From Myxococcota bacterium (GTDB lineage Bacteria; Myxococcota_A; Polyangia; Polyangiales; Ga0077539), in NCBI GenBank assembly GCA_052035985.1, contig JBPOHC010000366.1:1-64000 (forward strand): a stretch of 64,000 bases of DNA. Reading direction: 5' to 3'. A program made the position numbers and the translations under genes. Positions 8,168-51,160 of this stretch are shown here, in pieces. Every line of letters starts with the position of its first letter. The stretch's first letter is position 1. The notes under the pieces were generated by a model. It was not told the DNA's origin. It did not search any database and saw only the letters and a program-made list of their open reading frames with translations.

Positions 8168-9283
8168 TCACGTGGCCGGGGCGCCGCAGTTCGGGCAGAC
8201 GCCCAGTTCGGCGGCGTAGACCGACTTGCAGTGGGCGCAGGCGCGACGTCCCACGCGGGCGTCGGGGGCGATGGGCTTGAGCGTCGGGAACTTCACGGCC
8301 ATCTCGGCCGAGGACATCACGTCGTTGGGGTCCGAAGGGATCCACACGACCTCCATGGCCTGGAGGGCGCCGGGGCCCGCGAGGAGCACCTGGAGGTCGG
8401 CCCGGAGCGCGTCGCGGGTGGTCACCGGGACGAAGCCCGTGAAGTTGCCCCTGCGCGCGATGAGGAGGGTGACCACGACGAAGCCGCCGCCCTCTTCGGC
8501 GCGTCCGCGCGAGGCCGGGGCGTTGATCTTTCGCACGCCGCCCGCGTCGGCGCGCACGGTCTCGACGATGTAGCGCCCGCGCTCCTGATCGACGGCGGCC
8601 TGGAACTGCTGCTGCGTCACCTGCATCGAGAGCCCCTGGCTCACCGCGTGGTGCGTCATGTACGCGCTGTCGAGGAAGCGCGAGAGCGACGTGGCCATCG
8701 TGCGCGCGGCGTTCTCGAGGGCGTCGGGTGAGTTCTGCATCTGCACCGACCCCGCGATGCGATCGAGCTCGCCCTGCACCTGCGCGCGCACCGACGAGTC
8801 GAACGCGATGGCGAGCGCGCCGAGCGAGAAGGTCTCGGGCGTGAAGTCTCCGCCGGGCATTCCACCGAAGCCGTTCTGCGTGGGCACGTAGCTCACGCCG
8901 CTGCTCCCCTTCTTCTTGCTGAGCGCCATCCCGATGAGGATCACCACGATGAAGAAGAACACCACGCAGCACAGGGCGCCGGCCCCTCCGCCGCCGTTCG
9001 ACGACCCGCCCCCGTACGACCCGTAAGAGCCGCCGCCGTAGGACCCGCCGCTGCTCCCGCCGCCCCACGAAGAGCGGCTGCTGCTGCCCCAGCTCGTGCC
9101 CGACGAGCGGCTCCCGCCGCCCCAGCTCGAACCCGACGAGCGGCTCGACGAGGAGGAAGAAGATCGCCCCGAACCCCAGCTCGAACCGCCGAAGCTGCCG
9201 CCCGTGTGCTGCGCCAGCGAGGCCACCGGGACGAACACGGCGAGCACGACGACGAGGAACAGCCAGACCCTGAATCTCAGCAT
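8168..9283 (-). CDS. membrane protein with signal peptide, extreme Gly/Ser-rich low-complexity region, one TM helix and a C-terminal CxxC...CxxC zinc ribbon (DUF1517-like?)
   Basis: N-terminal hydrophobic signal. ([18 protein letters not shown])n tract, then hydrophobic CCVVFFFIVVILIGMAL. Globular domain ends with CAHCKSVYAAELGVCPNCG. Confidence 0.55.
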   Translation of the reverse strand: MLRFRVWLFLVVVLAVFVPVASLAQHTGGSFGGSSWGSGRSSSSSSSRSSGSSWGGGSRSSGTSWGSSSRSSWGGGSSGGSYGGGSYGSYGGGSSNGGGGAGALCCVVFFFIVVILIGMALSKKKGSSGVSYVPTQNGFGGMPGGDFTPETFSLGALAIAFDSSVRAQVQGELDRIAGSVQMQNSPDALENAARTMATSLSRFLDSAYMTHHAVSQGLSMQVTQQQFQAAVDQERGRYIVETVRADAGGVRKINAPASRGRAEEGGGFVVVTLLIARRGNFTGFVPVTTRDALRADLQVLLAGPGALQAMEVVWIPSDPNDVMSSAEMAVKFPTLKPIAPDARVGRRACAHCKSVYAAELGVCPNCGAPAT

Positions 9284-9323
9284 GGCGCGTACGTTACGCC
9301 GCGCGTTTGCGCCGCACCAGAGC

Positions 9324-10418
9324 TCACTGCGCGCAGGTCACCTGCGTGACGACGACGCGCGAGGCACCGTGCGCGGCGGGCTCGCGGCGCACCACCACCA
9401 CGGCGCCCTCGGCGCGCGTCGAGAGGCGCGCGGGCACCGGGGAGCCCGTGCGGACCGCCGTGGGCGCGGCGAGGCTCCCGTCGGGCGAGGTGCGCGCGAC
9501 GATGAGCCGCCCGTTCGTGAGGTCGTCGATGAGCACGAAGGCGCTCACGCCGTCGACCGTCGCGTCGATGAGCCCGAAGCGCCCTCGCGTCGTCGCGTCC
9601 GACGCGGCCCCGAGCGCCGCGCCGCCAGGGGGAACACGCACCAGCACCGGCGTCCCCGTGCCGTGGACCTGCACGCCGTGGAGGGCGCCCGCGAGGTCGA
9701 CGGGCCCGAGCGTGGCGGCGGGCCAGCGCAGCCGGGAGTTCACCTGCAACGTCGGCGAGAGACCCATGAGCGACGCGTCGGCGTTCGCGTCGACGCCCTC
9801 GACCGTGAGCGCGAGCGCGCCGAGCGAGGGCAGCCACGCGAGCCGCGGAGAACGTCCTTCGCCGAGGTCCGCCGCGCGGTCGTGGGAGACGCCGCGGAGG
9901 TCGAGCGCAGCACCACGGAGCGTGCGCCCCGCGGCCGCGGACCACACCACCGCGAAGCCCGACTCGGTGCTCGCGACGGCGAGCGAATCCACCGCGGCGT
10001 CTTCGCGCGCCACCCTGCGAGGGACGTTCTGCGCCTCGGCGCGTCCGTTGATTCGCGCGAGCATCACGTCGTGCCCGTCTTCGACGTAGGCGATGGCGGC
10101 GCCCGTGGGCGTGGCGGTCATCGCGAAGGTGGCCGACGGGCGTCCCACCTCGCGCGCGGCCCCGAGCGGTCGCCACTGGGCGTCGAAGGCGCGCACGCGC
10201 AGCGAGCCCGAGCGCTCACGCCACGCGACCACGGCGCCGCCCGCGGTGAACACCACCCACGGGGCCGTGGAAGGGTCGACGGCGTCGCTCTCGGCGAGCG
10301 CGAGGGTGTTGCTCGCGAGCGCGCATCCTGGCCGCTGCGTCCGGCGCGGCTGAGCCTGCGCGGTGAACGCCGTGACGAGGGCGCACAGCCCGAGGGAGAT
10401 TGGAGCGACGCGGCGCAT
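9324..10418 (-). CDS. secreted hypothetical protein (364 aa)
   Basis: Signal peptide MRRVAPISLGLCALVTAFTAQAQP with protein-like composition. The overlapping plus-strand ORFs are R/A-rich artefacts. Confidence 0.55.
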   Translation of the reverse strand: MRRVAPISLGLCALVTAFTAQAQPRRTQRPGCALASNTLALAESDAVDPSTAPWVVFTAGGAVVAWRERSGSLRVRAFDAQWRPLGAAREVGRPSATFAMTATPTGAAIAYVEDGHDVMLARINGRAEAQNVPRRVAREDAAVDSLAVASTESGFAVVWSAAAGRTLRGAALDLRGVSHDRAADLGEGRSPRLAWLPSLGALALTVEGVDANADASLMGLSPTLQVNSRLRWPAATLGPVDLAGALHGVQVHGTGTPVLVRVPPGGAALGAASDATTRGRFGLIDATVDGVSAFVLIDDLTNGRLIVARTSPDGSLAAPTAVRTGSPVPARLSTRAEGAVVVVRREPAAHGASRVVVTQVTCAQ

Positions 10419-10497
10419 CGAGCGGGCGGGAGGTTACTACTTCTGCTGCGCGCCGTGGTTGCGCGCGCGCTGTGATTGCTGTTACACGCCTCGCGCC

Positions 10498-11598
10498 ATG
10501 GCTCTCAAGGTAGGTATCGTAGGGCTGCCCAACGTGGGCAAGAGCACGCTCTTCAACGCCGTGTCGACGACGGCGCGCGCGGAGGCGGCGAACTTCCCCT
10601 TCTGCACCATCGATCCCAACGTGGGGACCGCGTCGGTGCCCGACGAGCGCTTCGACGCGCTCGTGCGGCTCTACAAGCCCGAGAAGGAGGTGCGCGCCAC
10701 CGTCGATTTCGTCGACATCGCGGGCCTCGTCCGCGGGGCGAGCAAGGGCGAGGGCCGCGGCAACGCGTTCCTCTCGCACATCCGCGAGGTCGACGCGGTG
10801 GCCCACGTGGTGCGCTGCTTCGACGACGAGAACATCATCCACGTCGACAACAAGGTCGACCCCGCGAGCGACGTCGAGACCATCGAGACCGAGCTCATTC
10901 TCAAAGACCTCGACGCAGTGGAGAAGCGCCTCGACCGCGCGCGCAAGCAGGCCAAGGGCGGCAAGCCCGAGGACAAGCTCGCCGTCGACGTGCTCGAGGT
11001 CGTCGCGAAGGGGCTCAACGAGGGCAAGACCGCCCACGCCATCACGCTCTCCGACGAGGGACGCGCGGTGATGCGAGACAGCTTTCTCCTCACCGACAAG
11101 CCCATGTTCTTCGTCGCCAACGTGGCCGAGAAGGACATTCACGGCGAGGGGAACGACCACGTCAAAAAGCTCGAAGCGATCGCGAAGAAGCGCGGCCTCC
11201 AGGTGACGCGCATCTCGGCTTCGATCGAGGCCGAGATCGCCTCGCTCCCGAAGGAGGACCGCGCGGACTTTCTCGCGAGCGTGGGGCTCACCGAGCCCGG
11301 TCTCCATCAGGTCGTGCGGACGGGGTACTCCGTGCTCGACCTCATCACGTTCTTCACCGCGGGCAAGCCCGAGGTCCACGCGTGGCCCATCCGTCGCGGC
11401 ACCACCGCGCCGGGCGCCGCGGGCAAGATCCACACGGACTTCGAGCGCGGCTTCATCAAGGCCGAGATGATCTTCTGGAAGGACCTCGTCGACCTCGGGA
11501 GCGAGGCCGCGTGCAGGGCCGCGGGCAAGCTCGGCATCGAGGGGCGCGACTACGTGGTCCGCGACGGCGACGTCGCCCACTTCAGATTCAACGTCTGA
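10498..11598 (+). CDS. ychF: ribosome-binding ATPase YchF (Obg-family GTPase)
   Basis: MALKVGIVGLPNVGKSTLFNA...FVDIAGLV...TGY domain...C-terminal FRFNV. The 366-aa length fits YchF. Start chosen at the conserved MALKVG inside the longer track ORF. Confidence 0.95.
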   Translation: MALKVGIVGLPNVGKSTLFNAVSTTARAEAANFPFCTIDPNVGTASVPDERFDALVRLYKPEKEVRATVDFVDIAGLVRGASKGEGRGNAFLSHIREVDAVAHVVRCFDDENIIHVDNKVDPASDVETIETELILKDLDAVEKRLDRARKQAKGGKPEDKLAVDVLEVVAKGLNEGKTAHAITLSDEGRAVMRDSFLLTDKPMFFVANVAEKDIHGEGNDHVKKLEAIAKKRGLQVTRISASIEAEIASLPKEDRADFLASVGLTEPGLHQVVRTGYSVLDLITFFTAGKPEVHAWPIRRGTTAPGAAGKIHTDFERGFIKAEMIFWKDLVDLGSEAACRAAGKLGIEGRDYVVRDGDVAHFRFNV

Positions 11599-11615
11599 AA
11601 TCTCCGTCATGGAGC

Positions 11616-11948
11616 ATGGAATCCCCAGCGACGGGGATGACATATCCCGGCACGCTCTGTAGAGTCCCCATCACTGTGAGTGGAATCTGGAACAACAGGT
11701 TTGAGGTCGTCCTCCGCCCCCTGCGTGATCCCCACGGTGCGCAGCACTCCGTGGTGATCGAGACGCGAACCGCCGCCAAGGCCACGCGAGAGGTGACGGC
11801 GCGCTTCCCCGACATGAAGGTCGTGTCGGTGACGCGCATCACCCCCACCGTCGCGTCGATCAAGGCCGCGCAGCGCGCCGAGGCCGCGGAGCAGTCTGAG
11901 ACCTCCGAGACCCCCGCCATCGTGACCCCGATCCGCCGCGTGGGCTGA
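11616..11948 (+). CDS. small hypothetical protein (~110 aa)
   Basis: Protein-like tail of track ORF 10476..11948 lying after ychF. ATG at 11616 (alternative at 11637). No known motifs and a weak RBS. Confidence 0.35.
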   Translation: MESPATGMTYPGTLCRVPITVSGIWNNRFEVVLRPLRDPHGAQHSVVIETRTAAKATREVTARFPDMKVVSVTRITPTVASIKAAQRAEAAEQSETSETPAIVTPIRRVG

Positions 11949-11954
11949 GCGCCG

Positions 11955-12251
11955 TCAGCGCTCGACCCACACCTCGATCAGCGCGCCATCCTCGGCGCGT
12001 CCGCACAGAAGAAAGCTGAACGCGCCCGGCACCCCGGGCACCTCGATCAACACGCGCACCGTGTCGAAGGCCTCGGCCGCGACGCTGTATCGCGCGACAT
12101 TGTCGCTCTGCGAGAACATCTCGAGCACCGCGTCTCTGCCCTGGTGCACCGACCCGTCGGCCTGACGAAAATGGACCCGCTCGTGGAGCACCGCCGCGAC
12201 CTCGTCGCCCTCTCGCTCCACCAGCACACGCAGCAACGCCGCGACGCTCAT
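11955..12251 (-). CDS. small SnoaL/NTF2-like protein (98 aa)
   Basis: ATG at 12251 overlaps the upstream gene stop (ATGA coupling). Sequence MSVAALLRVLVEREGDEVAAVLHERVHF...ALIEVWVER resembles NTF2-fold small proteins. Confidence 0.5.
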   Translation of the reverse strand: MSVAALLRVLVEREGDEVAAVLHERVHFRQADGSVHQGRDAVLEMFSQSDNVARYSVAAEAFDTVRVLIEVPGVPGAFSFLLCGRAEDGALIEVWVER

Positions 12252-13082: not shown

Positions 13083-14291
13083 ATGGCGCGCACCGCCGCG
13101 AGCACCCCCGGCGCGGCCTTCATGCTCCTCGACGCGCGCGATGGAGGACCTCGACGCGCCGTGCTCGCGGAGCGTCCCCGCGCGCTCGTTCACCGCGCCC
13201 ACGATGACCTCGACGGCGCGCTCGAAGCCTTCGGCGACGCCCTCGACGCGATGAGAGCGTCAGCTTCAGTGGGCTCCGACGACACGCTCCCCGTGGCCTT
13301 CGGGTGCATCACGTACGACGCCGCCGCGCGCGCGCTCGAACCTCACCACACCACCGACGCGAGGCCCCACGGAGATCGCTGCCCGAGCGCGTGGCTCGCC
13401 CGCTACGAGCGCGTGACCTCCGTCGAGCTGCCCGCGTGGCCGCTGCGCTCCGAGGTGCGGGCGGCGGGGCTCCTCGGTCCCTTCGAGAGCGCGACCGATC
13501 ACGACGCGCACGTCGCGGGGGTTGAAGCGATTCGGGCCGCGATCCGCGACGGAGACGTCTACCTCGTGAACCTCGCGAGGACGCTCCACGCGCGCGGTGA
13601 GCCCGAGCCCGAGGCCCTGTGGTCGCGGGTGCTCGCGTCGTCGGCCCGCTACGGCGCGGTGCTCCACGTCGGCGACGCGCTCGTCGCGGGCATGAGCATG
13701 GAGCTCGCCCTCGCGTGGGACCGCGCGACCGGCATCGCGACGAGCCGACCGATCAAGGGGACGCGCCCTCGCCGCGAGGACCCCGACGACGATCGACGCG
13801 AGGCCGAGGCGCTCGCGGCGGACCCCAAGGAGCGCGCCGAGAACGCGATGGCGATCGACGTCCATCGCAACGACCTCGGGCGCGTCGCGGAGATCGGGGG
13901 CGTGACCGTGCCCGCGCGCTTCGAGTCCGAGCCGCACAGGCATGTGCATCACCTGGTGTCGACGGTGCGGGCGCGCGTCCCAGGGGAGACTCCTGCGCGC
14001 GACGTGCTCCGCGCGGTGCTCCCCGTGGGGTCGGTGACGGGCGCGCCGAAGCTCGCCGCGATGGAGCACATCGAACGCCTCGAGCGCTCCCGCAGGGGCC
14101 TCTACACGGGCGTCTACGGGGCCGTCTACGAAGACGGGTCGGTGCAGCTCGCCGTGGCGATCCGCACGCTCGTGCGCGACGCCGCGGGCTGTCACTACGG
14201 CGTCGGCGGCGGGATCGTCTGGGACAGCGACCCCGAGCGCGAGTGGCAGGAGCTCGCGTGGAAGCAGCGCGCCCTCGGCGAGCGTCGCTGA
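13083..14291 (+). CDS. pabB: chorismate-binding enzyme, aminodeoxychorismate/anthranilate synthase component I family (PabB-like)
   Basis: SRPIKGTRPR, AENAMAIDVHRNDLGRV, VGSVTGAPKLAAMEHIERLE..RRGLYTGVYGAV..AIRT are hallmark chorismate-utilising motifs. About 400 aa from ATG 13083. Confidence 0.8.
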   Translation: MARTAASTPGAAFMLLDARDGGPRRAVLAERPRALVHRAHDDLDGALEAFGDALDAMRASASVGSDDTLPVAFGCITYDAAARALEPHHTTDARPHGDRCPSAWLARYERVTSVELPAWPLRSEVRAAGLLGPFESATDHDAHVAGVEAIRAAIRDGDVYLVNLARTLHARGEPEPEALWSRVLASSARYGAVLHVGDALVAGMSMELALAWDRATGIATSRPIKGTRPRREDPDDDRREAEALAADPKERAENAMAIDVHRNDLGRVAEIGGVTVPARFESEPHRHVHHLVSTVRARVPGETPARDVLRAVLPVGSVTGAPKLAAMEHIERLERSRRGLYTGVYGAVYEDGSVQLAVAIRTLVRDAAGCHYGVGGGIVWDSDPEREWQELAWKQRALGERR

Positions 14292-43374: not shown

Positions 43375-44673
43375 TCACACGGGCGAGTCGGTGGTCGGAG
43401 CCTTCGCCTCGTCGAGACCTTCGAGCGTGCGCATGGCCTTCTCGCGGTCGAACTCCCCCTCCCAGCGAGAGACCACCACCGCGGCGACGCCGTTGCCGAT
43501 GAGGTTCGTGATCGCGCGGGCCTCTGACATGAAGCGGTCGACGCCGAGGAGCAGCGTGATGCCCGCCACGGGGATGCGCCCCGTCGAGGCCAGCGTGGCC
43601 GCGAGGGTGATGAAGCCTCCGCCCGTCACGGCCGCGGCGCCCTTCGAGGTCACCAGCAGCACGCCGAGGATCGAGAGTTCTTCGCCGAGCGAGAGATGCA
43701 CGTCGGTGGCCTGCGCGACGAACATCGCGGCCATCGTGAGGTAGATCGACGTGCCGTCGAGGTTGAACGAGTAGCCCGTCGGAATGACCATCCCCACGAC
43801 GGAGCGCGGGCACCCGAGGGCCTCCATGCGAGAGATCATGCGGGGCAGCGCCGACTCGCTCGAGCTCGTGCCGAGCACCACGAGGATCTCCTCGGAGATG
43901 TACCGGAGAAAGGCCGTGATGCGCAGCCCCGAGGCCGCGCGCAGAATGCCCCCGAGCACGATGAAGATGAAGAGCGCGCTGGTGATGTAGAACGCCGCCA
44001 TGAGCCGCCCGAGGCTCACGAGCGTGTGCACGCCGTACTTGCCCACGGTGAAGCCCATCGCGCCGAAGGCTCCGATGGGAGCCGCGCGCATCACGATCCC
44101 CACGACGCCGAAGAGGGCCTGGCCGAGCCGGTCGATCCAGTGCACGAGCTCGCGCCCGCGGTCTCCCATCGCAGAGAGCGCGAAGCCGAAGAGCACCGAG
44201 AACACGAGCACCTGGAGGATCTCTCCCTTCGCGAAGGCCTCGGCCACGTTCGAGGGGATCATGTTGAGGATGAACTCGCTGGTCTTGAGCTGGTGCGCCG
44301 CGCCCGTGAAGCCCTCGATGGCGTGCGCGTCGAGCGTGCGCGGGTCCGCGTGGATGCCCGCGCCCGGGCGCAGCACCTTCACCACGACGAGCCCGATGAA
44401 GAGCGCGAAGGTGGTCACCACTTCGAAGTAGAGCAGGGCCTTGGCCCCCACGCGGCCGACCTTCTTCATGTCGCCCATGCCCGCGATGCCCACGACCACC
44501 GTCGAGAACACGATGGGCGCGATCACCATGCGAATGAGCCTGATGAAGCCCTCGCCGAGCGGCTTGAGCGACTCGCCCCAGTGCGGCTTCACGTGCCCGA
44601 GCACGGCCCCGAGCACGATCGCGACGAGCACCTGGAGGTAGAGGCTCTGGTACCACCTGCGAGGGGCGTTCAT
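43375..44673 (-). CDS. dctA: C4-dicarboxylate transporter DctA (Na+/H+ dicarboxylate symporter family)
   Basis: [27 protein letters not shown] start typical of DctA. 432 aa polytopic membrane protein. Confidence 0.85.
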
Positions 44674-44817
44674 GGCGTCGACGATCGACGAGCCGAGGCG
44701 CCCGCCGCAAGCGCGCAGATCGACGGAAACATCGCGGCGAAGAATCGCGTTTGTATTCTCCGATGGCTGAGAACAAAGGCCCGGCAGCGAAAAAGAAGAA
44801 TCACGAAAGAAATTATC

Positions 44818-44855
44818 AAAACATTCTTGACAGAGTGGCGTCAGTACCCCTAGAG
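44818..44855 (+). promoter_or_regulatory. sigma-70-like promoter (TTGACA-N17-TAGAGT) in AT-rich segment
   Basis: cattcTTGACAgagtggcgtcagtacccCTAGAGTgc inside a locally AT-rich stretch (44740-44850) of an otherwise ~70% GC window. No obvious downstream CDS. Confidence 0.35.
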
Positions 44856-45628
44856 TGCACATCACCAACGGCGCTCACGAAGAGCGAGCGGTTGCTCTCG
44901 GGTGTTTTCACCCCGGGGCCCCCCTTCTCGACGAGAGCGCGGCGGTGGTAAGGGTTGAGGCGCACACAGCGTGCGACGACCCGAAGTCCGTCACATGACG
45001 GGCTCACAAAAAGACACGCAGCGACACCCCCAGACACGACCATGACGAACTTCCTGACCGATCTCAGCAACACCGCGAAGCGCGACCGCGCCGCGCGACC
45101 CTTCGGGGCCGCCGTCGACGTCGCCGCCACGCAGGTGTGCGGTCGCCAGGATCGTCGCCCCGAAGGTACGGGGAATCATCGTCGCGTCGCGGGACAGAAG
45201 CCGCGGCAGTTCAGCGGAGCAGGACCATGAGGTGAAGAGCCTCCATCGGTCCAACGGTCTCGAAAGAAGGCCGGCTCCGCCCCCGAAGGCAGAGTCGGCC
45301 TTCTCGTTTTCTGGGTCCTGAGAGACGGACCACCGAGAGGCACCCCGAGCGGCGAAGCGAGCGCTCGGGCGACGATGCGAGAAGCGGGGCGAAGGCGATC
45401 GACAGGGCGCTCACGAAGCGACGCGATCAACTCCTCCGACGGTCGACGGGGACGCGAAGCACAGACCCGCGGGCAAGGGCCCGACGGTGCCCGGGAGAGG
45501 TGTATCTTCAAATCTAATAGATTGAAAATGAACGTCGAAACAAATGGCTGAAACAAACGAAGTAGATCGACGTTCAAACAGATAGATACGACGCGGCAGG
45601 GGAAACAAACCGCGAAGTAACGCAGCAC

Positions 45629-45702
45629 GGATCCGGAACCTCGAGAGGCAGAGGCGGCGGCTCTTACCCGTCGACGTGAGGGTTCAAGTCCCTTCGGATC
45701 TA
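45629..45702 (+). tRNA. tRNA-like, anticodon CTT (Lys) by manual fold
   Basis: Acceptor ggatccg/cggatct. Anticodon stem ggcgg/ccgtc, loop ctCTTac. T-arm gaggg-ttcaagt-ccctt. CCA encoded at 45703-05. D-region irregular. Confidence 0.4.
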
Positions 45703-45760
45703 CCAACCGCACCGCGCAGCGCGCGCTGCGGGCAACGCCTGGCACGAGGGTGTTGCGAAT

Positions 45761-45831
45761 TGCCCGATGGTCCAATGGCAAGATGGCCGGCTCTGAACTG
45801 GTTGATCCTGGTTCGAATCCAGGTCGGGCAA
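45761..45831 (+). tRNA. tRNA-Gln(CTG)-like
   Basis: Perfect acceptor tgcccga/tcgggca. U8. Anticodon loop ctCTGaa. T-arm cctgg-ttcgaat-ccagg. Weak D-stem. Confidence 0.5.
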
Positions 45832-45969
45832 CCGTCTGGCGGAGGGGGACACGTCCCCGCCACTCCGCGGATCTCTGACAACACGGGGTTGATGAGCGTC
45901 AGGCGCGACACCATGCGCGCCGCGACGCGAACGAAGGCGCCCTCCGCCACGATGAGGGAGGGCGCGCAC

Positions 45970-46042
45970 TGCGGGGTAGCTCAAAGGTAGAGCGGTCGGC
46001 TGTTAACCGGCGTCCGTGTGGGTTCGATTCCCTCCCTCGCAG
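45970..46042 (+). tRNA. tRNA-Asn(GTT)
   Basis: D-arm gctc-aaaggta-gagc. Anticodon stem gtcgg/ccggc, loop ctGTTaa. T-loop ttcgatt. 3' CCA encoded. Confidence 0.6.
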
Positions 46043-46053
46043 CCATCGTGAAC

Positions 46054-46124
46054 GGGGCCATCGTCCAAGGGGAAGATGTCTGCATGGCATGCAGGAGATG
46101 AGGGTTCGACTCCCTCTGGTTCCA
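46054..46124 (+). tRNA. tRNA-Ala(GGC)-like
   Basis: Acceptor ggggcca/tggttcc (2 G-U). Anticodon stem tctgc/gcagg, loop atGGCat. Perfect T-arm gaggg-ttcgact-ccctc. D-arm degenerate. Confidence 0.45.
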
Positions 46125-46140
46125 CTGTTTGATTCGCTTC

Positions 46141-46213
46141 GCCCATCGAGGCTGTCGGAAGAAACCGTCGGGCTACGAACTCGAAGTGCGTGGTTCAACT
46201 CCACGGATGGGCG
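46141..46213 (+). tRNA. tRNA-Arg(ACG)
   Basis: Perfect acceptor gcccatc/gatgggc. Anticodon stem tcggg/ctcga, loop ctACGaa. T-arm cgtgg-ttcaact-ccacg. CCA encoded. Confidence 0.6.
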
Positions 46214-46220
46214 CCAGTAT

Positions 46221-46293
46221 CAGCGTGTAGCTCAGTCAGAAGAGCGCCTGCTTCGGGAGCAGGAGGCCGCGGGGGCAGGTCCCGCCTCGCTGA
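46221..46293 (+). tRNA. tRNA-Pro(CGG)-like with non-canonical T-loop
   Basis: Canonical D-arm tagctcagtcagaagagc. Anticodon stem cctgc/gcagg, loop ttCGGga (G37). T-stem gcggg/cccgc but T-loop ggcaggt lacks TTC. Confidence 0.45.
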
Positions 46294-46324
46294 CCGCGTC
46301 GCAAGACGCTTCGCCTCGCATCAC

Positions 46325-46397
46325 GGCCCTGTCGTCTAGAGGTTCAAGATCGCTGGCCCTCAACCAGCAGAGGCGGGTTCGAGTCCCGTCAGGGTCG
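46325..46397 (+). tRNA. tRNA-Glu(CTC)-like
   Basis: Acceptor ggccctg/cagggtc. Anticodon stem gctgg/ccagc, loop ccCTCaa (C at 33). T-arm gcggg-ttcgagt-cccgt. Confidence 0.5.
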
Positions 46398-46410
46398 CCG
46401 TTTCAGCATC

Positions 46411-46483
46411 GCGGACGTAGTGTTCAACAGCAGCACATCGCGGCCCCATCGCGAGAGCTCGGGTGCAAATCCCGACGTCCGCA
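46411..46483 (+). tRNA. tRNA-Gly(CCC)-like
   Basis: Perfect acceptor gcggacg/cgtccgc. Anticodon stem tcgcg/cgcga, loop gcCCCat. T-arm tcggg-tgcaaat-cccga. Confidence 0.5.
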
Positions 46484-46534
46484 CCGGAGCGCGCACGCGG
46501 CGCCGTCCAAGCCGAGCGTTGCGCATTCCATCAA

Positions 46535-46606
46535 GGTCCCGTCGTTCAACGGATAGGACAGCCGATTGTCGATCGGCCAACGCGGGTTCGATTCCCGTCG
46601 GGACCG
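46535..46606 (+). tRNA. tRNA-Asp(GTC)
   Basis: Acceptor ggtcccg/cgggacc. D-arm gttc-aacggata-ggac. Anticodon stem gccga/tcggc, loop ttGTCga. T-arm gcggg-ttcgatt-cccgt. Confidence 0.7.
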
Positions 46607-46622
46607 CCTTCTGTCTCTCTCT

Positions 46623-46695
46623 GCCCATCGAGGCTGTCGGAAGAAACCATCGGGTGGCGAACCCGAAATGCGTGGTTCAACTCCACGGATGGGCG
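46623..46695 (+). tRNA. tRNA-like Arg paralogue with aberrant anticodon loop (possible pseudo-tRNA)
   Basis: Near-identical to 46141..46213 in acceptor, D- and T-arms, but anticodon loop is tgGCGaa (G at position 33). Confidence 0.35.
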
Positions 46696-46713
46696 CTCTC
46701 TGCCTCTCGCCTC

Positions 46714-46786
46714 GACCCTGTCATCTAACGGCTCAGGATGCCTGGTTCTCAGCCAGATCATACGGGTTCGAATCCCGTCAGGGTCG
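46714..46786 (+). tRNA. tRNA-Glu(CTC)
   Basis: Perfect acceptor gaccctg/cagggtc. Anticodon loop ttCTCag with U33. T-arm acggg-ttcgaat-cccgt. Confidence 0.6.
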
Positions 46787-46802
46787 CCGCCTCACCGCCT
46801 CT

Positions 46803-46875
46803 GCGGACGTAGTGTTCAACAGCAGCACCTCACAGTGCCATCGTGAGAGATCGGGTGCAAATCCCGACGCCCGCA
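46803..46875 (+). tRNA. tRNA-Gly(GCC)
   Basis: Paralogue of 46411..46483. Anticodon stem tcaca/cgtga (4 bp), loop gtGCCat (U33, A37). T-arm tcggg-tgcaaat-cccga. Confidence 0.6.
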
Positions 46876-46893
46876 CCGCTTCTGCGCCTCTCT

Positions 46894-46966
46894 GGTCCTG
46901 TCGTTCAGTGGTCTAGGACGGCCGATTGTCGATCGGTCAACGCGGGTTCGATTCCCGTCGGGACCG
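46894..46966 (+). tRNA. tRNA-Asp(GTC), second copy
   Basis: Paralogue of 46535..46606. Anticodon stem gccga/tcggt, loop ttGTCga. Identical 3' flank cgccttctgtc. Confidence 0.65.
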
Positions 46967-46986
46967 CCTTCTGTCACTGCCTTCTT

Positions 46987-47055
46987 CGTGGTCCGATCAG
47001 CATCGAGCCCTGTCTTACAAACAAGGCGAACCGGGGGCGGCACCCGGGGCCACGA
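46987..47055 (+). tRNA. tRNA-like, anticodon TAC (Val), reduced D-arm, non-canonical T-loop
   Basis: Acceptor cgtggtc/ggccacg. Anticodon loop ctTACaa. T-stem ccggg/cccgg with loop ggcggca. CCA encoded at 47056-58. Only 69 nt. Confidence 0.3.
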
Positions 47056-47059
47056 CCAT

Positions 47060-47132
47060 CAGTGTGTAGCTCAGCCAGGAGAGCGCCGGTTCGGGGGACC
47101 GGAGGCCGCGGGGGCGGAACCCGCCACACTGA
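47060..47132 (+). tRNA. tRNA-Pro(GGG)-like with non-canonical T-loop
   Basis: Perfect acceptor cagtgtg/cacactg. D-arm gctc-agccagga-gagc. Anticodon stem ccggt/accgg, loop tcGGGgg. T-loop ggcggaa. CCA encoded. Confidence 0.45.
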
Positions 47133-47145
47133 CCACTCTCCTCAT

Positions 47146-47216
47146 GGGGCGGTAGTTCAACGGTAGAACGCCTGACTGTGGCCCAGGCAATATGGGTTCG
47201 ATTCCCGTCCGTCCCT
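47146..47216 (+). tRNA. tRNA-His(GTG)-like
   Basis: Acceptor ggggcgg/ccgtccc. Perfect D-arm gttc-aacggta-gaac. Anticodon loop ctGTGgc. T-arm atggg-ttcgatt-cccgt. Confidence 0.5.
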
Positions 47217-47246
47217 CTGTTTTCAAAGCACTTCACAGCCTCTCAT

Positions 47247-47319
47247 GGCCCTGTCGTCTAATGGTAGAAGATCGCGGATTTTCACCCCGCGGACACGGGT
47301 TCGATTCCCGTCAGGGCTG
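47247..47319 (+). tRNA. tRNA-Glu(TTC)
   Basis: Acceptor ggccctg/cagggct. Anticodon loop ttTTCac (canonical Glu loop). T-arm acggg-ttcgatt-cccgt. CCA encoded at 47320-22. Confidence 0.65.
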
Positions 47320-47332
47320 CCATGAATCGCTT

Positions 47333-47403
47333 GCGGGTATGGTGTAGCAGCAGCACCGGTGGCCTCCGCCCACCATGCGCGGGTGCGAATCCCGCTGCCC
47401 GCT
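47333..47403 (+). tRNA. tRNA-Gly(TCC)-like
   Basis: Acceptor gcgggta/tgcccgc. Perfect anticodon stem ggtgg/ccacc, loop ccTCCgc. T-arm gcggg-tgcgaat-cccgc. Confidence 0.5.
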
Positions 47404-47517
47404 CCGTCTGATCGTCGACCCCGTCATCACGCCGCCCCCAATTCGTAGATAGCGACGTACCCGTCTCGTACACGGGCCAGTGCCGTGCAAGTCGGCATGG
47501 GGGCTCTACGTCACCGC

Positions 47518-48666
47518 TCAGCCCATCGCGCGCAGACGCCGCGCGGCCTCTTCGAGCACGTCGTCGTCCTTCGCGAAGCAGAAGCGCAGCAGCGTCTCGC
47601 CCACGGGGTCACGGTAGAAGCTCGCACCCGACACGCTCGCGATCTTCGCCCGATCAAGCAGGACGAAGGCCGCCTCGCGCGCCGTCTTGCGTTCGAAGCG
47701 CCGCGCGTCGGCCAGCACGTAGTACGCGCCCGCGGGCACATACGGGGTCAGGCCCGCGTCGGCGAGCGCGCTGCACAGGACGTCGCGCTTCTTCTGGTAG
47801 CTCGCGCCGAGCCCGCGAAAGTACGCGTCGGGCATCGCGAGCCCCTCGGCGCACGCGTGCTGGAGCGGCGTCGGCGCGCACACATACAAGAGGTCGTGCG
47901 CCACCGCGATGCGCCGCGCGGCCTCGGGGGGAGCGATCGCGTAGCCCACGCGCCAGCCCGTCACCGAGAAGGTCTTCGAGCAGCCCGAGAGCGTGATCGC
48001 GCGGTCGCGCATCCCAGGGCGCGTGGCCAGCGGGACGTGCTTCGCGCCCTCGTACACGATGTGCTCGTAGATCTCGTCGGTGATCACCACGAGGTCTCGC
48101 GCGTGGGCGAGCGCGCCGAGGGCGTCGAGCTCCGCGGGCGTCCACACCTTGCCGTGCGGATTGCCCGGGGTGCACACCACGATCGCGCGCGTGCGCTCGG
48201 TGACGGCGCTCGCGAGCGCGTCGAAGTCGACCTCCCACGTCGGCGGACGAAGCGGGACGAGCACCGGGCGCATCCCGAGACCCACCACCGTGTTGTAGTG
48301 ATAGCCGTAGTAGGGCTCGAAGAGGATCACCTCGTCGCCCGGGTCGAGGAGCGCCAGGCACGCCGCGGCGAAGCCTCCCGTCGCGCCGAGCGTGACCACC
48401 ACCTCGGAGCCCGGGTCGACCGCGAGCCCATAGTCTCGATCGACGCGCTTCGCGATGGCCTCCCTCAACGCGGGGACGCCCTCGGGCGGCGCGTACACGG
48501 CCTTGCCTGCGTCGATGGCCGCGTGCGCCGCGAGGGCCACGGGCGCGGGCGTCGGGAGATCGCAGACGCCTTGACCGAGGTTGATTCCGCCGACCGCGTC
48601 GCAGGCGCGCGTCATGGCGCGGATGTCGGAGACGGCTGCGTTGGCGAGGCGTGATCCGATGCGCAT
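47518..48666 (-). CDS. pyridoxal-phosphate-dependent aminotransferase, class I/II (AspC/YbdL-like)
   Basis: 382 aa. ...GINLGQGVCDLP...ITDEIYEHIVYEG...SKTFSVTGWRVGY (Lys-containing PLP motif SxSK). Overlapping ORFs on both strands are GC artefacts. Confidence 0.85.
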   Translation of the reverse strand: MRIGSRLANAAVSDIRAMTRACDAVGGINLGQGVCDLPTPAPVALAAHAAIDAGKAVYAPPEGVPALREAIAKRVDRDYGLAVDPGSEVVVTLGATGGFAAACLALLDPGDEVILFEPYYGYHYNTVVGLGMRPVLVPLRPPTWEVDFDALASAVTERTRAIVVCTPGNPHGKVWTPAELDALGALAHARDLVVITDEIYEHIVYEGAKHVPLATRPGMRDRAITLSGCSKTFSVTGWRVGYAIAPPEAARRIAVAHDLLYVCAPTPLQHACAEGLAMPDAYFRGLGASYQKKRDVLCSALADAGLTPYVPAGAYYVLADARRFERKTAREAAFVLLDRAKIASVSGASFYRDPVGETLLRFCFAKDDDVLEEAARRLRAMG

Positions 48667-48757
48667 AGGCGGCGGAGTCTATCGAAACCTTCGCCGCGAA
48701 GGCCACGCGCGATTCGTCGAGGCATCTCTTCGCAGGGGCCGCGAGAGTGCTGATACG

Positions 48758-50066
48758 ATGCCCACCGTGAGCCAACGAAGCACCTCCCTCGCGGTCGTCA
48801 CGGGCCGCGGTCTGCCGCTGCTCCTCACGCTCGTCGCGTGCGCGCCGAAGAACCTCAGCATCGGTCCCGTCGACCACGACGTCGCCGTCGTCGACGCGTC
48901 TACGAAGGACACGGGCGCGCCGCCCACGGACGTCACGCGCCCCGACTCGACGGTCGCGAGCGACGTGCCCGAGGCCGACATCTACGTCGACGTTCCGGTG
49001 GTGATCGACCCCGATCAGCCCCTCGCCGACGTGGCGTCTGACAGGGCCAACGACGCGCCGCGACCGCTCGATGCGACGGGCGTCGACGCGGGGCCGCTGC
49101 CCAACCTCATCCCCGTGATTTCGAACCCGCAGATTCAGGAGCGCACCTTACCTCGCGACCTCGTGCGAGGTGATGGAGGGCTGCACGATGGCGGGCGATC
49201 GGAGGCTGCTCCGCTTCGACCTCTCGACCCCCAACATCGGCGCGGCGGACCTCTACCTCGGGGCGCCCACGATGGCGGGGCGTCCGCCGATGATGTTCGA
49301 GTACGGCACCTGCCACATGCACTGGCACCTGCGCGGCTATGCGGACTATCGGCTCATGACCCTCGACGGTCGCGAGGTGGGCCGCGGTCACAAGCAGTCG
49401 TTCTGCCTGCTCGACTCGGGGCGCTACATGACCATGGGCGCCGACATCCCCGCGGCCATGCGATACAACTGCGGCAACCAGGGGATTCACGCGGGCTGGA
49501 TGGACGTCTACGGCCGCAGCCTCGACTGCCAGTACGTCGACATCACGGGCGTGCCTCCGGGGCGCTACCGCATCCGCGCGCAGATCAACGTCGAGCGCGT
49601 CGTGGCCGAGAGCGACTACGCCGACAACGAGAGCTTCTACATGATCGACGTCCCGCCGCCGCCCGACTCGGATGCGGGCGCGGGCGACGCGGGCGTGTCG
49701 TTCGACCCGACGCTCGCGTGCTCGGGCGCCACCGAAGGCACCGGACGCAACTGCGGCTGGCAGGTCGAGGGACCCACGCGCACCTGCACCCCCGGCGTGC
49801 GCGTCGAGGTCGGGTGCAACCAGGGCTGCATGCCTCCGCTCGGGCTCTGCGCGGGCGATCCCATGATCCGCATCTGCCCCGGCGGAAGCCCCTGCCAGGA
49901 CCTCACCGCGCTCACCGCGAACGACGACTCGTGCCCCGGCGACGGAGGCCCCACGAGGCTCTGCTCGCTCGCGGCCTTCACGTGCCCGGCGAGCGGGCGA
50001 TACACCATCCTCACCGGCGCCTACCGCGCCGGCATGGCCTACGAGTGTCACCTCGAAACACGCTGA
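48758..50066 (+). pseudogene. lysyl-oxidase (LOX)-like copper amine oxidase lipoprotein, copy 1, interrupted by an apparent +1 frameshift near 49148
   Basis: Frame-2 N-terminus (ATG 48758, lipobox LLLTLVAC, acidic linker ...NPQIQERT) continues in frame 0 as YLATSCEVMEGCTM..., matching copy 2 (PLIQERVFLATSCDVLEGCTM) once the single extra base t49148 is removed. LOX signature CHMHWHLRGYADYRL and conserved Cys pattern downstream. Confidence 0.55.
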
Positions 50067-51160
50067 TCGCAGCCCTCTCCGTCGCAGCCTGCACGTCGAC
50101 GGACCCTCCCCGCGGAGACGCCTCGGCCGACGCCCGCGACGCCGCGAGCGACCTCGTCGACGCCCGCGACGTCACCTCCGATGTGTCATTGCCTGACCTT
50201 CGCGCCGAGCTGCGCTTTCCGCTCATTCAGGAGCGGGTCTTTCTGGCGACGTCGTGCGACGTGCTCGAGGGGTGCACGATGCCGGGGCGACGGCGGCTGC
50301 TGCGCTTCGACCTCACGACGCCCAACCTCGGCGACGGCGACCTCGTGCTCGGTCCGCCCGTGGTCGAGGGGCGCGCGCAGCCGGGCTTCGAGTGGGGCGA
50401 GTGTCACGGACACTTTCACTTCTCGGGCTACGCGGACTATCGCCTCGTCGCGCTCGACGGGCGCGAGGTCGCGCGCGGACACAAGCAGGCCTTCTGCCTC
50501 GAAGACACCGACCGGGCGCGCGTCGGCGGGCCGCTCCTCTCCGACGCAGAGCGCTTCAACTGCGACCGTCAGGGCATCCACGCGGGGTGGCAGGACGTCT
50601 ACGGCCGCGGCCTCGACTGCCAGTACGTCGACATCACCGACGTGCCCGCGGGGAGGTATCGCATCCGCGCGACGGTGAACCCCGAGGGGCGCATCGCCGA
50701 GTCGGACTACAGCAACAACGTCGGCGAGTTCGAGGTCGAGGTCTCCGCGTGGAACCCCGACGCCGGCGTGTCCGACGCGGGCGTCGACGCGGGCGTCGTG
50801 AACCCGACGCTCCCCTGCACCACGAGCGAGCAGGGGGCGCACCGCGACTGCGGCTGGGACGCGGAGCCTTCTGCGCGGCGCTGCACCCCGGGCGCGAGCG
50901 TGACCCTCGGGTGCGACGCGCGCTGCGGCCCCACGCTCGGGTTCTGCGCGGGCGACACGATGCTCCGCGTGTGTGAGGGCGAGGCTCCGTGCGACGACCT
51001 CCGCGCGCTCGCGACGAACGACGACGCGTGCGAGGCCGACGGCGCGCGCGACCCGTGCTCTCGCGTCACCTTCACGTGTCCCGCGTCGGGGTCGTATCGC
51101 GTGCTCGCCGGGGCGTACCGCGCGGGGGCGGCGTACACCTGCCGCGCCGAAGCGCGCTGA
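50045..51160 (+). CDS. lysyl-oxidase (LOX)-like lipoprotein, copy 2 (371 aa)
   Basis: GTG 50045 gives MSPRNTLIAALSVAAC lipobox signal. CHGHFHFSGYADYRL, GHKQAFCLED, GIHAGWQDVYG..LDCQYVDIT, Cys-rich C-terminus, ~60% identical to copy 1. Lies within track ORF 48581..51160. Confidence 0.7.
   Translation: MSPRNTLIAALSVAACTSTDPPRGDASADARDAASDLVDARDVTSDVSLPDLRAELRFPLIQERVFLATSCDVLEGCTMPGRRRLLRFDLTTPNLGDGDLVLGPPVVEGRAQPGFEWGECHGHFHFSGYADYRLVALDGREVARGHKQAFCLEDTDRARVGGPLLSDAERFNCDRQGIHAGWQDVYGRGLDCQYVDITDVPAGRYRIRATVNPEGRIAESDYSNNVGEFEVEVSAWNPDAGVSDAGVDAGVVNPTLPCTTSEQGAHRDCGWDAEPSARRCTPGASVTLGCDARCGPTLGFCAGDTMLRVCEGEAPCDDLRALATNDDACEADGARDPCSRVTFTCPASGSYRVLAGAYRAGAAYTCRAEAR

Follow-up and report, generated by a model that had tools for sequence, protein, structure and literature searches.

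Nineteen tRNA genes in tandem on one strand

We analysed a 64-kb stretch of DNA from a Myxococcota bacterium of the order Polyangiales (GenBank assembly GCA_052035985.1, contig JBPOHC010000366.1, positions 1 to 64,000), hereafter referred to as the window, and found 19 tRNA genes arranged head-to-tail on the + strand between positions 45629 and 47506 (1,878 bp, 10 genes per kb; Table 1). ARAGORN with default settings called 15 tRNAs in the window, all of them on the + strand within these limits and none in the remaining 62 kb, and a relaxed threshold added Gly(CCC), Gly(GCC) and Pro(GGG). Searches with the Rfam family RF00005 (gathering threshold = 29 bits) recovered 11 genes in a scan of the whole window and 13 of the 19 at 29 bits or more in a local scan (61.2-29.9 bits). 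A cloverleaf with a 7-bp acceptor stem, D, anticodon and T arms and a 7-nt anticodon loop was obtained for 18 genes from the ARAGORN structures and for the remaining Val-like gene, which both ARAGORN and Rfam missed and which carries an A73-CCA end, from a minimum-free-energy fold alone. A first-pass annotation of this DNA, made without database searches, had proposed 18 tRNA candidates; all of them proved real, with the anticodons as given, most pass both ARAGORN and Infernal rather than falling below threshold, and the 19th gene, Thr(CGT), lies just beyond the range considered then.

The genes are separated by spacers of 1-136 nt (median ~15 nt), the long ones following Lys (55 nt), Gln (136 nt) and the first Gly (49 nt, before Asp), a wider range than the 5-20 bp given at first. 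The full CCA end is encoded in six of the 19 genes, in keeping with the earlier remark that some members have it and others do not. A block of Arg-(Pro)-Glu-Gly-Asp genes is repeated within the array, with per-gene identities of 90% for Arg, 89% for Gly, 95% for Asp and ~70% for Glu; the segmental duplication described previously is thus real, but the copies have diverged (70-95% per gene) and their flanks are similar rather than identical. No open reading frame (ORF) overlapping the array or its leader showed a coding signal in third-position GC.

Table 1. Positions of the tRNA genes and of the associated leader and spacer elements in the window
Feature	Position	Strand	Basis and characteristics
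Upstream direct-repeat copy TTCAAA-N3-AATAGAT	45507..45522	+	Candidate regulator site; only window match, 0 expected; conserved in seven-locus alignment
Candidate ECF-sigma-type promoter TGAAAC-N16-CGTT	45549..45574	+	Ends 54 nt before tRNA-Lys; single window match, 0.05 expected
Second repeat copy TTCAAAC-A-GATAGAT	45573..45587	+	Overlaps -10 region and likely transcription start; leader alignment
Leader hairpin (CGCGG...CCGCG)	45592..45614	+	Just 5' of tRNA-Lys
tRNA-Lys(CTT)	45629..45705	+	ARAGORN; CCA encoded; atypical core, 3-nt connector (GAA) replacing U8-N9
tRNA-Gln(CTG)	45761..45833	+	ARAGORN, Rfam 55.7 bits; U1-A72
Invariant core TCTCTGACAA..GGTTGATGAG	45872..45896	+	Within 136-nt Gln-Asn spacer (45834-45969); conserved in 8 loci, flanking hairpins variable
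tRNA-Asn(GTT)	45970..46045	+	ARAGORN, Rfam 55.1 bits; G73; CCA encoded
tRNA-Ala(GGC)	46054..46125	+	ARAGORN, Rfam 47.7 bits; G3:U70, A73
tRNA-Arg(ACG) copy 1 (Arg-1)	46141..46216	+	ARAGORN; CCA encoded; 3-bp D-stem
tRNA-Pro(CGG)	46221..46295	+	ARAGORN, Rfam 51.2 bits; T-loop GGCAGGT (G54 G55), A18-G19, C1-G72, A73
tRNA-Glu(CTC) type 1 (Glu-1)	46325..46399	+	ARAGORN, Rfam 48.5 bits; C33
tRNA-Gly(CCC)	46411..46485	+	Rfam 40.1 bits, relaxed ARAGORN; T-loop TGCAAAT (G55), A18, C33
tRNA-Asp(GTC) copy 1	46535..46608	+	ARAGORN, Rfam 58.1 bits; G73
tRNA-Arg(GCG) copy 2 (Arg-2)	46623..46696	+	ARAGORN; anticodon loop TGGCGAA (G33)
tRNA-Glu(CTC) type 2	46714..46788	+	ARAGORN, Rfam 51.2 bits
tRNA-Gly(GCC)	46803..46877	+	Rfam 29.9 bits, relaxed ARAGORN; T-loop TGCAAAT (G55), A18
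tRNA-Asp(GTC) copy 2	46894..46968	+	ARAGORN, Rfam 57.9 bits
Val-like tRNA(TAC)	46987..47058	+	Minimum-free-energy cloverleaf; miniature D-arm (short stem, CAGC tetraloop), T-loop GGCGGCA, A73-CCA encoded
tRNA-Pro(GGG)	47060..47135	+	Relaxed ARAGORN; T-loop GGCGGAA; C33 (or enlarged loop); CCA encoded
tRNA-His(GTG)	47146..47217	+	ARAGORN, Rfam 61.2 bits; without G-1:C73 (U-1, U73)
tRNA-Glu(TTC)	47247..47322	+	ARAGORN, Rfam 54 bits; CCA encoded
tRNA-Gly(TCC)	47333..47405	+	ARAGORN, Rfam 48.1 bits; T-loop TGCGAAT (G55), A18, C33, U73
tRNA-Thr(CGT)	47434..47506	+	ARAGORN; below Rfam threshold; T-loop TGCAAGT (G55), A18

The identity elements are those expected from the anticodons, with G3:U70 and A73 in Ala, C1-G72 and A73 in Pro, G73 in Asp, Glu and Asn, U1-A72 in Gln, and A73 in Lys and Val. 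The exception is tRNA-His, in which G-1 is absent from all 5 distinct orthologues and position 73 is U or A. For this gene and its orthologues, either charging is poor, or recognition by HisRS or maturation of the 5' end differs in this lineage. Myxobacteria encode Thg1-like 3'-5' polymerases.

Conservation across an uncultured Polyangiales clade

We then searched for relatives of the array. A 20-mer from the Arg gene had one real match among 185,579 species genomes, in a metagenome-assembled genome of Polyangiales bacterium STL-MYX7 (locus L002; the assembly contains JAXLYG010000005.1); the other four of the five genome matches carried no tRNA array and were discarded as chance. The L002 locus, found by DNA pattern and ~96-98% identical in DNA, shares the leader and the aminotransferase flank of the window and contains 23 tRNA genes, including one interrupted copy, with one Glu-Gly-Asp-Val-like block more than the window. 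The interruption is a 229-bp insertion (L002 5628-5856) that splits the third tRNA-Asp and has perfect 13-bp terminal inverted repeats (CTCTACTGTCCCG) and a CTAG duplication; it looks like a miniature inverted-repeat transposable element (MITE) of an IS5-like family, and its inverted repeat is absent from the window.

An exact match to the flanking aminotransferase led only to a 1.6-kb contig from a fragmented assembly, too short to be informative. More loci were found as homologues of this aminotransferase, whose contigs were then inspected (protein identity to the window given in brackets). Genomes that carry the array include GCA_046351555.1 and GCA_964267755.1. The array was present in L009/L010 (98%), L015 (89%), L011 and L016/L017 (86%) and L012 (85%), and together with L002 these make at least seven related Polyangiales contigs in which it stands right after the aminotransferase stop codon. 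It was absent at this site in L013/L014 (79%; DnaJ genes follow) and in L019 (77%), and L018 (83%) was left out because its contig ends there. Related aminotransferases with a genus name come from Polyangium, Minicystis and Byssovorax. Scanning metagenomes with a pattern from the Lys D-arm added five arrays (L021, L024, L028, L029 and L033); 13 of the 19 pattern matches had no array and were set aside as chance, one (L027) having a single unrelated tRNA call. Every copy starts with Lys-Gln-Asn-(Ala)-Arg, and every copy is limited to tRNAs for Lys, Gln, Asn, Ala, Arg, Val, Pro, His, Gly, Asp, Glu and Thr, while the number of blocks varies among close relatives. The shared site, start and amino-acid set mark the array as a stable chromosomal feature of one uncultured Polyangiales clade. 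Neither mobile genes nor a donor were found, and presence at 85-98% and absence at 79% and 77% aminotransferase identity fit a single gain, and an origin in situ would also be possible.

What lies beyond the other end of the array depends on the subclade: a sodium:dicarboxylate (SDF) symporter in one, a 165-189-aa ORF plus GlgB in the other. Between the aminotransferase and the array, L012 has an ORF of 941 aa (9262-12087) and L016 and L017 have ORFs of 182-223 aa (9317-9865 and 3773-4444, respectively); these intervening ORFs mark the junction as an insertion site. No Pfam domain was found in the array-adjacent ORFs of the relatives (165-189 aa, 223 aa and 941 aa).

Comparison of the window with L009 revealed that tRNA positions are 99.0% identical (14 of 1414 differ) vs 90.3% for the spacers (46 of 472 differ), 90.6% for the leader and 96.3% for the neighbouring coding sequence, so that the tRNAs evolve ~10 times more slowly than the spacers between them. 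The cloverleaf is kept in every family, with 95-100% of base-pair cells intact across seven loci, and compensatory changes on both sides of a pair were detected for Gly (14 pairs, 15 distinct sequences), Glu (8), Pro (7), Asp (6), Asn (5), Gln (4), Thr (4), Arg (3), His (3), Val (2), Val-like (2) and Lys (1), members missed by Rfam included. The Lys gene, for example, has 100% and the Thr gene 99% of cells paired (6 distinct orthologues each), and Val-like orthologues in L011, L012 and L016 have the anticodon CAC and a different yet complementary acceptor stem within the same cloverleaf. These comparisons indicate that the array tRNAs are under purifying selection. The second Arg gene is a recent duplicate of the first that occurs in the window subclade only; the two are 90% identical, with changes concentrated in the anticodon arm, and the duplicate's anticodon loop reads TGGCGAA in the window vs TCGCGAA in L009.

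The most consistent departure from canonical tRNA structure lies in the elbow, where G18 ordinarily contacts U55 and G19 pairs with C56 (PMC7912444). G55 occurs in seven of the 19 genes (three Gly, Thr, two Pro and Val-like); it is accompanied by A18 in six, the Val-like gene lacking a normal D-loop, and the other 12 have the canonical elbow (G18-G19, T54-Psi55-C56); C56 and G19 are kept. Positions 54-56 read TGC in every Gly and Thr gene, where TGC instead of the near-universal TTC places G55 in the position of U/Psi55, and GGC or AGC in the Pro and Val-like genes. Across the loci, A18-G19 was found in all 27 distinct G55 tRNAs with a normal D-loop (Gly, Thr and Pro), and G18-G19 in all 59 distinct U55 tRNAs. 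Given the known elbow contacts, the replacement of G18.Psi55 by A18.G55 with G19-C56 retained is a clean tertiary covariation. T-loops lacking TTC had previously been noticed in the two Pro genes and the Val-like gene, which is right but incomplete, as all three Gly genes and Thr share the trait.

The anticodon loop departs from the rule as well. U33 is present in 14 of the 19 genes, and the remaining five, which bear out an earlier remark on C or G at position 33, have C33 (Glu-1, Gly(CCC), Gly(TCC) and Pro(GGG)) or G33 (Arg-2). In type 1 Glu(CTC), C33 occurs in five of the six carrier loci (loop CCCTCAA in the window, L002, L011, L012 and L016) and U33 in L009; other tRNAs with conserved C33 are Gly(CCC), the third Gly type and the Thr of the distant subclade. 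The members that the first-pass annotation called non-canonical are not degenerate copies, since their oddities are conserved, covarying and under purifying selection. Judged by sequence comparison, the rule-breaking features (A18.G55, C33, the mini-D-arm Val and the atypical Lys and Arg cores) are compensated and selected variants rather than signs of decay. Overall, the original observation of the array is confirmed and its interpretation supported in part; the description had passed over the Thr gene, did not mention TGC in the T-loops of Gly and Thr, and lacked both the covariation of A18 with G55 and the promoter-like, conserved leader.

The same elbow was seen once outside the clade. A low-GC jumbo-phage contig of 181 kb (IMG/VR UViG_3300037560_000207, locus L007) encodes a tRNA-Gly(TCC) (11011-11083, - strand) whose 20-nt D-arm GTAGTGTTCAACAGCAGCAC is identical to that of the array Gly genes. 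This phage gene has the TGC T-loop and the same A18/G55 pair, and the neighbouring Ile and Arg tRNAs are canonical. The match suggests that this special class of tRNA-Gly is widespread. A literature search of incomplete coverage returned no description of A18/G55 elbow variants, which is weak evidence of novelty.

Leader, spacers and chromosomal setting

The leader of the array is AT-rich in a genome of ~70% GC, and in the seven-locus alignment invariant blocks alternate with variable sequence. It contains a candidate promoter whose TGAAAC-N16-CGTT motif matches what we take to be the signature of extracytoplasmic function (ECF) sigma factor promoters, namely AAC (-35) and CGT (-10) ~16-17 nt apart. 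The Bacillus subtilis sigma-W promoter reads TGAAAC-N16-CGTA. A single copy of the form TGAAAC-N16-CGT(T/A) is present in each of 11 other array loci, and the form is absent from the 27 other fetched loci; in L009, AGAAAC replaces TGAAAC as the first element. Wherever both were mapped, the motif lies upstream of tRNA-Lys, with fixed spacing and variable spacer sequence. The leader hairpin keeps its position in L011, L012 and L016 with different stems (GCGCCGC/GCGGCGC), that is, with compensatory changes. No terminator was detected 3' of the array, and no terminator-like site on the + strand within it.

Several spacer elements are also conserved. The core of the Gln-Asn spacer, TCTCTGACAA..GG(T)TGATGAG, has a CUGA...UGAUGA arrangement resembling a C'/D'-type K-loop; it had no Rfam match, the spacer folds with z = -2.2, and the entire spacer is missing in L015, L016 and L021. 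The 49-nt spacer after Gly(CCC) (46486-46534, GGAGCGCGCACGCGGCGCCGTCC...GCGCATTCCATC) recurs nearly unchanged after Gly(TCC) in L015 (~5150-5200), so that at least one spacer is conserved, and it may be a processing signal or a hairpin. A further conserved hairpin of ~45 nt (GGTCCGGCGCCGGGGTGTCCATCCCCGCTCGCGCCGGTCC) lies between tRNA-Arg and the Val-like gene in L011 (~10400-10440), L012 (~13510-13560) and L016 (~11050-11100); its appearance is that of a stem-loop similar to a T-arm with an acceptor stem stacked on it, as in a minihelix or tRNA remnant, and is absent in the window subclade. Directly upstream of the array leader lies a possible small transcription unit (44827-45313, + strand), with the region's only sigma-70-like match, TTGACA-18-TAGAGT (44827-44856), a terminator-like hairpin with T-run (45285-45313), and a 62-aa ORF (45042-45230) that was also called in L009/L010 and had no Pfam match.

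The array is flanked by two opposite-strand genes, for a sodium:dicarboxylate symporter (43375-44868, -) and a class I/II aminotransferase (47518-48666, -), and tRNA-Thr ends 11 nt from the stop codon of the convergent aminotransferase gene. The window genes are ordinary chromosomal ones, including those for ClpB, YchF, LexA, SelB, sigma-54 activators, a TonB receptor, a rhamnose-pathway epimerase, Hsp20 and murein hydrolases. Two tandem genes with lysyl-oxidase domains (48581-51160 and 49170-50066, +) adjoin the aminotransferase, and the three genes are syntenic in every relative, whether or not it has the array. A link between the array and the lysyl-oxidase genes, as a supply for collagen-like proteins, was rejected because L013/L014 keep those genes without the array. 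Elsewhere in the window, a 913-aa protein (21682-24423, +) matches the shoulder and repeat domains of the major vault protein (MVP_shoulder, Vault_3) as well as a GGDEF-like domain, and its gene adjoins one for a VWA-domain protein. Vault-like proteins are unusual in bacteria.

Candidate functions and known counterparts

The anticodons of the array match the most-used codons of 26 window genes (AAG, CAG, AAC, CGC, CCC/CCG, GAG, GGC/GGG, GAC, CAC and ACG), and the C34 anticodons are useful only in a regime of G-ending codons. The earlier suggestion that C34 suits a high-GC codon usage holds, as C34 and G34 both fit the preference of the window genes for G/C-ending codons. The 12 amino acids covered make up ~72% of the residues of these genes; Leu, Ile, Met, Ser, Phe, Tyr, Cys and Trp are missing, as are codons starting with U.

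On balance, we consider the array to be probably a lineage-specific chromosomal accessory (supernumerary) tRNA operon of an uncultured Polyangiales clade, likely under stress control and used in translation. Its retention by selection across related species, despite the rule-breaking members, points to a real accessory operon rather than to phage debris. The 19 genes would most likely be transcribed as one precursor from the ECF-sigma-like promoter, with the two TTCAAA..RATAGAT repeats flanking or overlapping it. RNase P and 3'-processing enzymes would cut the precursor to single tRNAs, and the CCA-adding enzyme would finish the 3' ends, as a full CCA is missing from 13 of the 19 genes. The tRNAs would then be charged and used on the ribosome as an extra pool for the host's preferred G/C-ending codons. 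Expression is probably conditional, through a stress sigma factor, as in the cryptic L-array of Anabaena, and the array itself would change by unequal recombination between the repeated Arg/Pro-Glu-Gly-Asp blocks.

Several points weigh against the view of an accessory translational operon. Transcription, processing, aminoacylation, use on the ribosome and stress induction are all deduced from DNA sequence, and the presence of housekeeping copies elsewhere is deduced from the eight missing amino acids and the atypical tRNA-His within 64 kb of genome. Six of the 19 genes (Lys, Arg-1, Arg-2, Val-like, Pro(GGG) and Thr) fall below the RF00005 threshold in the window, where Arg-1 had no Rfam report at all; orthologues of Lys, Arg and Pro(GGG) in relatives do exceed it (36.5 bits for Lys in L012, 36.8-41.9 bits for Arg-1 and 43.9 bits for Pro(GGG) in L002). 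U33 is missing from five genes and U55 from seven, two nucleotides that are expected to be important on the ribosome, and tRNA-His, without the G-1:C73 determinant, may be poorly charged. Codon demand fails to explain the restriction to 12 amino acids, given that Leu is absent despite forming 9.4% of residues. As for control, the ECF consensus is our assumption, Pfam scans of the window ORFs found no ECF sigma gene in the 64 kb, and no sigma-70-type promoter was found in the array leader.

The conserved deviations leave room for other functions. A tentative extension of the operon model, which we think possible but not likely, is a 'shadow' set controlled by a stress sigma factor and re-engineered at the sites that proteins read (A18.G55 in four amino-acid families, C33, the D-loop-less tRNA-Val and His without G-1). 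Such a set would be insulated from a factor reading the elbow or the anticodon loop and would sustain the translation of polar and small residues when housekeeping tRNAs are attacked or depleted; the factor might be a tRNA-cleaving toxin from a competitor or phage, or else TruB or TrmA, which act in modification and quality control. The array would then be the equivalent, on a bacterial chromosome, of phage anti-defence tRNAs. A related and rather unlikely explanation is a nuclease-proof spare set, in which altered anticodon loops and elbows would make the tRNAs poor substrates for tRNA-cleaving toxins, so that translation continues or recovers after an attack. The deviations do lie where tRNases read or cut (anticodon loop and T-loop), Arg-2 has diverged from Arg-1 almost exclusively in the anticodon arm, and differently again in L009, and the promoter looks stress-type. 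Among the amino acids served are Lys, Arg, Asn, Asp, His, Gln and Glu, whose tRNAs are well-known targets of PrrC, colicins D and E5 and zymocin. Precedents are phage tRNAs that escape anticodon nucleases, retron effectors and PARIS (PMC10264068, PMC11555353, PMC11464382). Most members, however, have ordinary anticodon loops, no toxin, immunity or defence gene adjoins the array in any locus, no system of this kind is known from a bacterial chromosome, and resistance to cleavage is a supposition drawn from the sequence.

Very unlikely, in our view, is a role of the G55 group (Gly, Thr, Pro and Val-like) as non-ribosomal donors that would feed aminoacyl-tRNA-dependent transferases making cell wall, lipids or peptide natural products. 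The idea draws on Staphylococcus aureus, in which non-proteogenic tRNA-Gly with TGC or TGT in the T-loop lacks pseudouridine, binds EF-Tu and the ribosome poorly, escapes EF-Tu through the weak pairs A49-U65, U50-A64 and A51-U63, and is used for the pentaglycine bridge (PMC7826273); the array has TGC in Gly and Thr and GGC in Pro and Val-like, and its Val-like tRNA lacks a normal D-loop. The T-stem speaks against it: all 15 distinct array Gly sequences have the TGC T-loop, but all 15 also have G51-C63 with C50-G64 or U50-A64, the tight EF-Tu (proteogenic) type according to the same rule (PMC7826273), and since they fail this test, the array Gly genes stand outside the staphylococcal non-proteogenic lineage. 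G19-C56 is kept, anticodons that track codon usage (three for Gly) would be needless in a pure donor, and the jumbo-phage tRNA-Gly has the same A18/G55 design. Pfam scans of the window ORFs also found no Fem, MprF, cyclodipeptide-synthase, LanB or PEARL-type domain. Tight T-stems, codon-matched anticodons and the lack of a transferase domain in the window together favour ribosomal use.

Two further explanations concern the origin of the array. A decaying relic of a phage- or element-borne cluster, now non-functional and drifting, with the odd members as pseudogenes, would account for the six genes below the Rfam threshold, the L002 Asp copy split by the MITE-like insertion, the variable block number and the weak phage similarity (~75-78% for Pro to Caulobacter phage phiCbK, the best phage match, and the Gly D-arm 20-mer in one jumbo-phage contig). 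It appears largely refuted by the compensatory pairs in every family, the perfect 18-55 covariation and the difference in rate between tRNAs and spacers, along with the conserved leader motif and the retention of the array across lineages with 15% divergence in the flanking protein, and we regard it as highly improbable. Less credible still, and the least probable of all, is that the array is cargo of a currently mobile element (prophage, integrative and conjugative element or genomic island). Known long tRNA arrays do spread horizontally (PMC8421152, PMC4758250), the far-side neighbour differs between subclades, and GC is lower in the array region (0.65 vs 0.70-0.73), but low GC is normal for tRNA genes, and the clade shares one flank and the gene order throughout. 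Pfam scans of the ORFs found no integrase, transposase, phage or conjugation gene in the 64-kb window, and there is no att-like repeat, the array ends recurring nowhere else in it. BLAST of the whole array against 50,697 GenBank phage records returned generic tRNA similarity and no close match, and against plasmids three matches of 3-7% coverage, likewise generic; Gly alone had no phage match and Thr alone one chance match, and scans of viral contigs gave no match for an Arg-like 20-mer and only the jumbo-phage contig for the Gly D-arm 20-mer, a match that makes a phage origin no more than conceivable. The phage or mobile-element setting, one of those named in the first-pass annotation, finds no support: the flanks within the 64 kb are ordinary chromosomal ones, no att-like repeat was found, and the array has one fixed site across the whole clade.

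The closest counterparts of the proposed accessory operon are the long tRNA arrays. One is the L-array (trn operon) of Anabaena sp. PCC 7120, with 23 functional tRNAs described, which is silent until translation is impaired and has direct repeats in promoter control (PMC8421152). The present array resembles it in its single orientation, very short spacers, probably supernumerary isoacceptors, promoter direct repeats and likely conditional expression, all genes lying closely spaced on the + strand as expected of a co-transcribed L-array. Its distribution (one clade, absent at the same site in the next relatives) also looks patchy, as in L-arrays, which are reported in all classes of Proteobacteria. 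Unlike L-arrays, it is chromosomal, with neither a homing endonuclease nor a mobile gene close by; its site is fixed and inherited within the clade, and the block duplications make it partly periodic; unlike the Anabaena array, it serves 12 amino acids only, has many conserved non-canonical cores and has a promoter of ECF-like look. The tRNA array unit of Tran et al. 2016 (at least 20 genes and at least 2 per kb, with examples in Acidithiobacillus and Mycobacterium and with Proteobacteria among the phyla with a few arrays; PMC4758250) shares the very high density, the isoacceptor redundancy and an evolution by duplication, deletion and rearrangement. The window copy exceeds this density and, with 19 genes, is one under the 20-gene minimum, whereas the L002 copy (23) reaches it. 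The terms tried in these two surveys (PMC8421152, PMC4758250) found no mention of myxobacterial arrays, and a wider literature search, incomplete in coverage, returned nothing relevant.

Phage clusters such as those of phiCbK, T5 and jumbo phages also consist of compact tRNAs, and they share the weak Pro similarity and, in one jumbo-phage tRNA-Gly(TCC), the D-arm and A18/G55; what distinguishes the array is the absence of phage genes, anticodons and GC that fit the host, and persistence across host speciation. With the non-proteogenic tRNA-Gly of S. aureus and S. epidermidis, reported as restricted to staphylococci, it has in common TGC for TTC, hence no pseudouridine-55, and a D-loop without the usual G18; it differs in keeping G19-C56 and tight T-stems, in extending the trait to Thr, Pro and Val, and in having no Fem-type transferase nearby (PMC7826273).

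The function of long tRNA arrays is understood in essentially one case, that of Anabaena. The physiological role of the present array may be extra decoding capacity under stress, a nuclease-proof spare set or another one. It constitutes a natural experiment in tRNA architecture, with a selected A18.G55 elbow beside retained G19-C56 and EF-Tu-type T-stems, and this conservation predicts that the alternative elbow works in vivo. The amino-acid repertoire is sharply restricted, beyond codon demand. The vertical stability of the array makes selection measurable (tRNAs 99% vs spacers 90% identical), and the conserved candidate stress promoter means that an inducing condition can be sought. If resistance to tRNases or a special translation programme proved true, the idea of anti-defence tRNAs, developed for phages, would extend to bacterial chromosomes.

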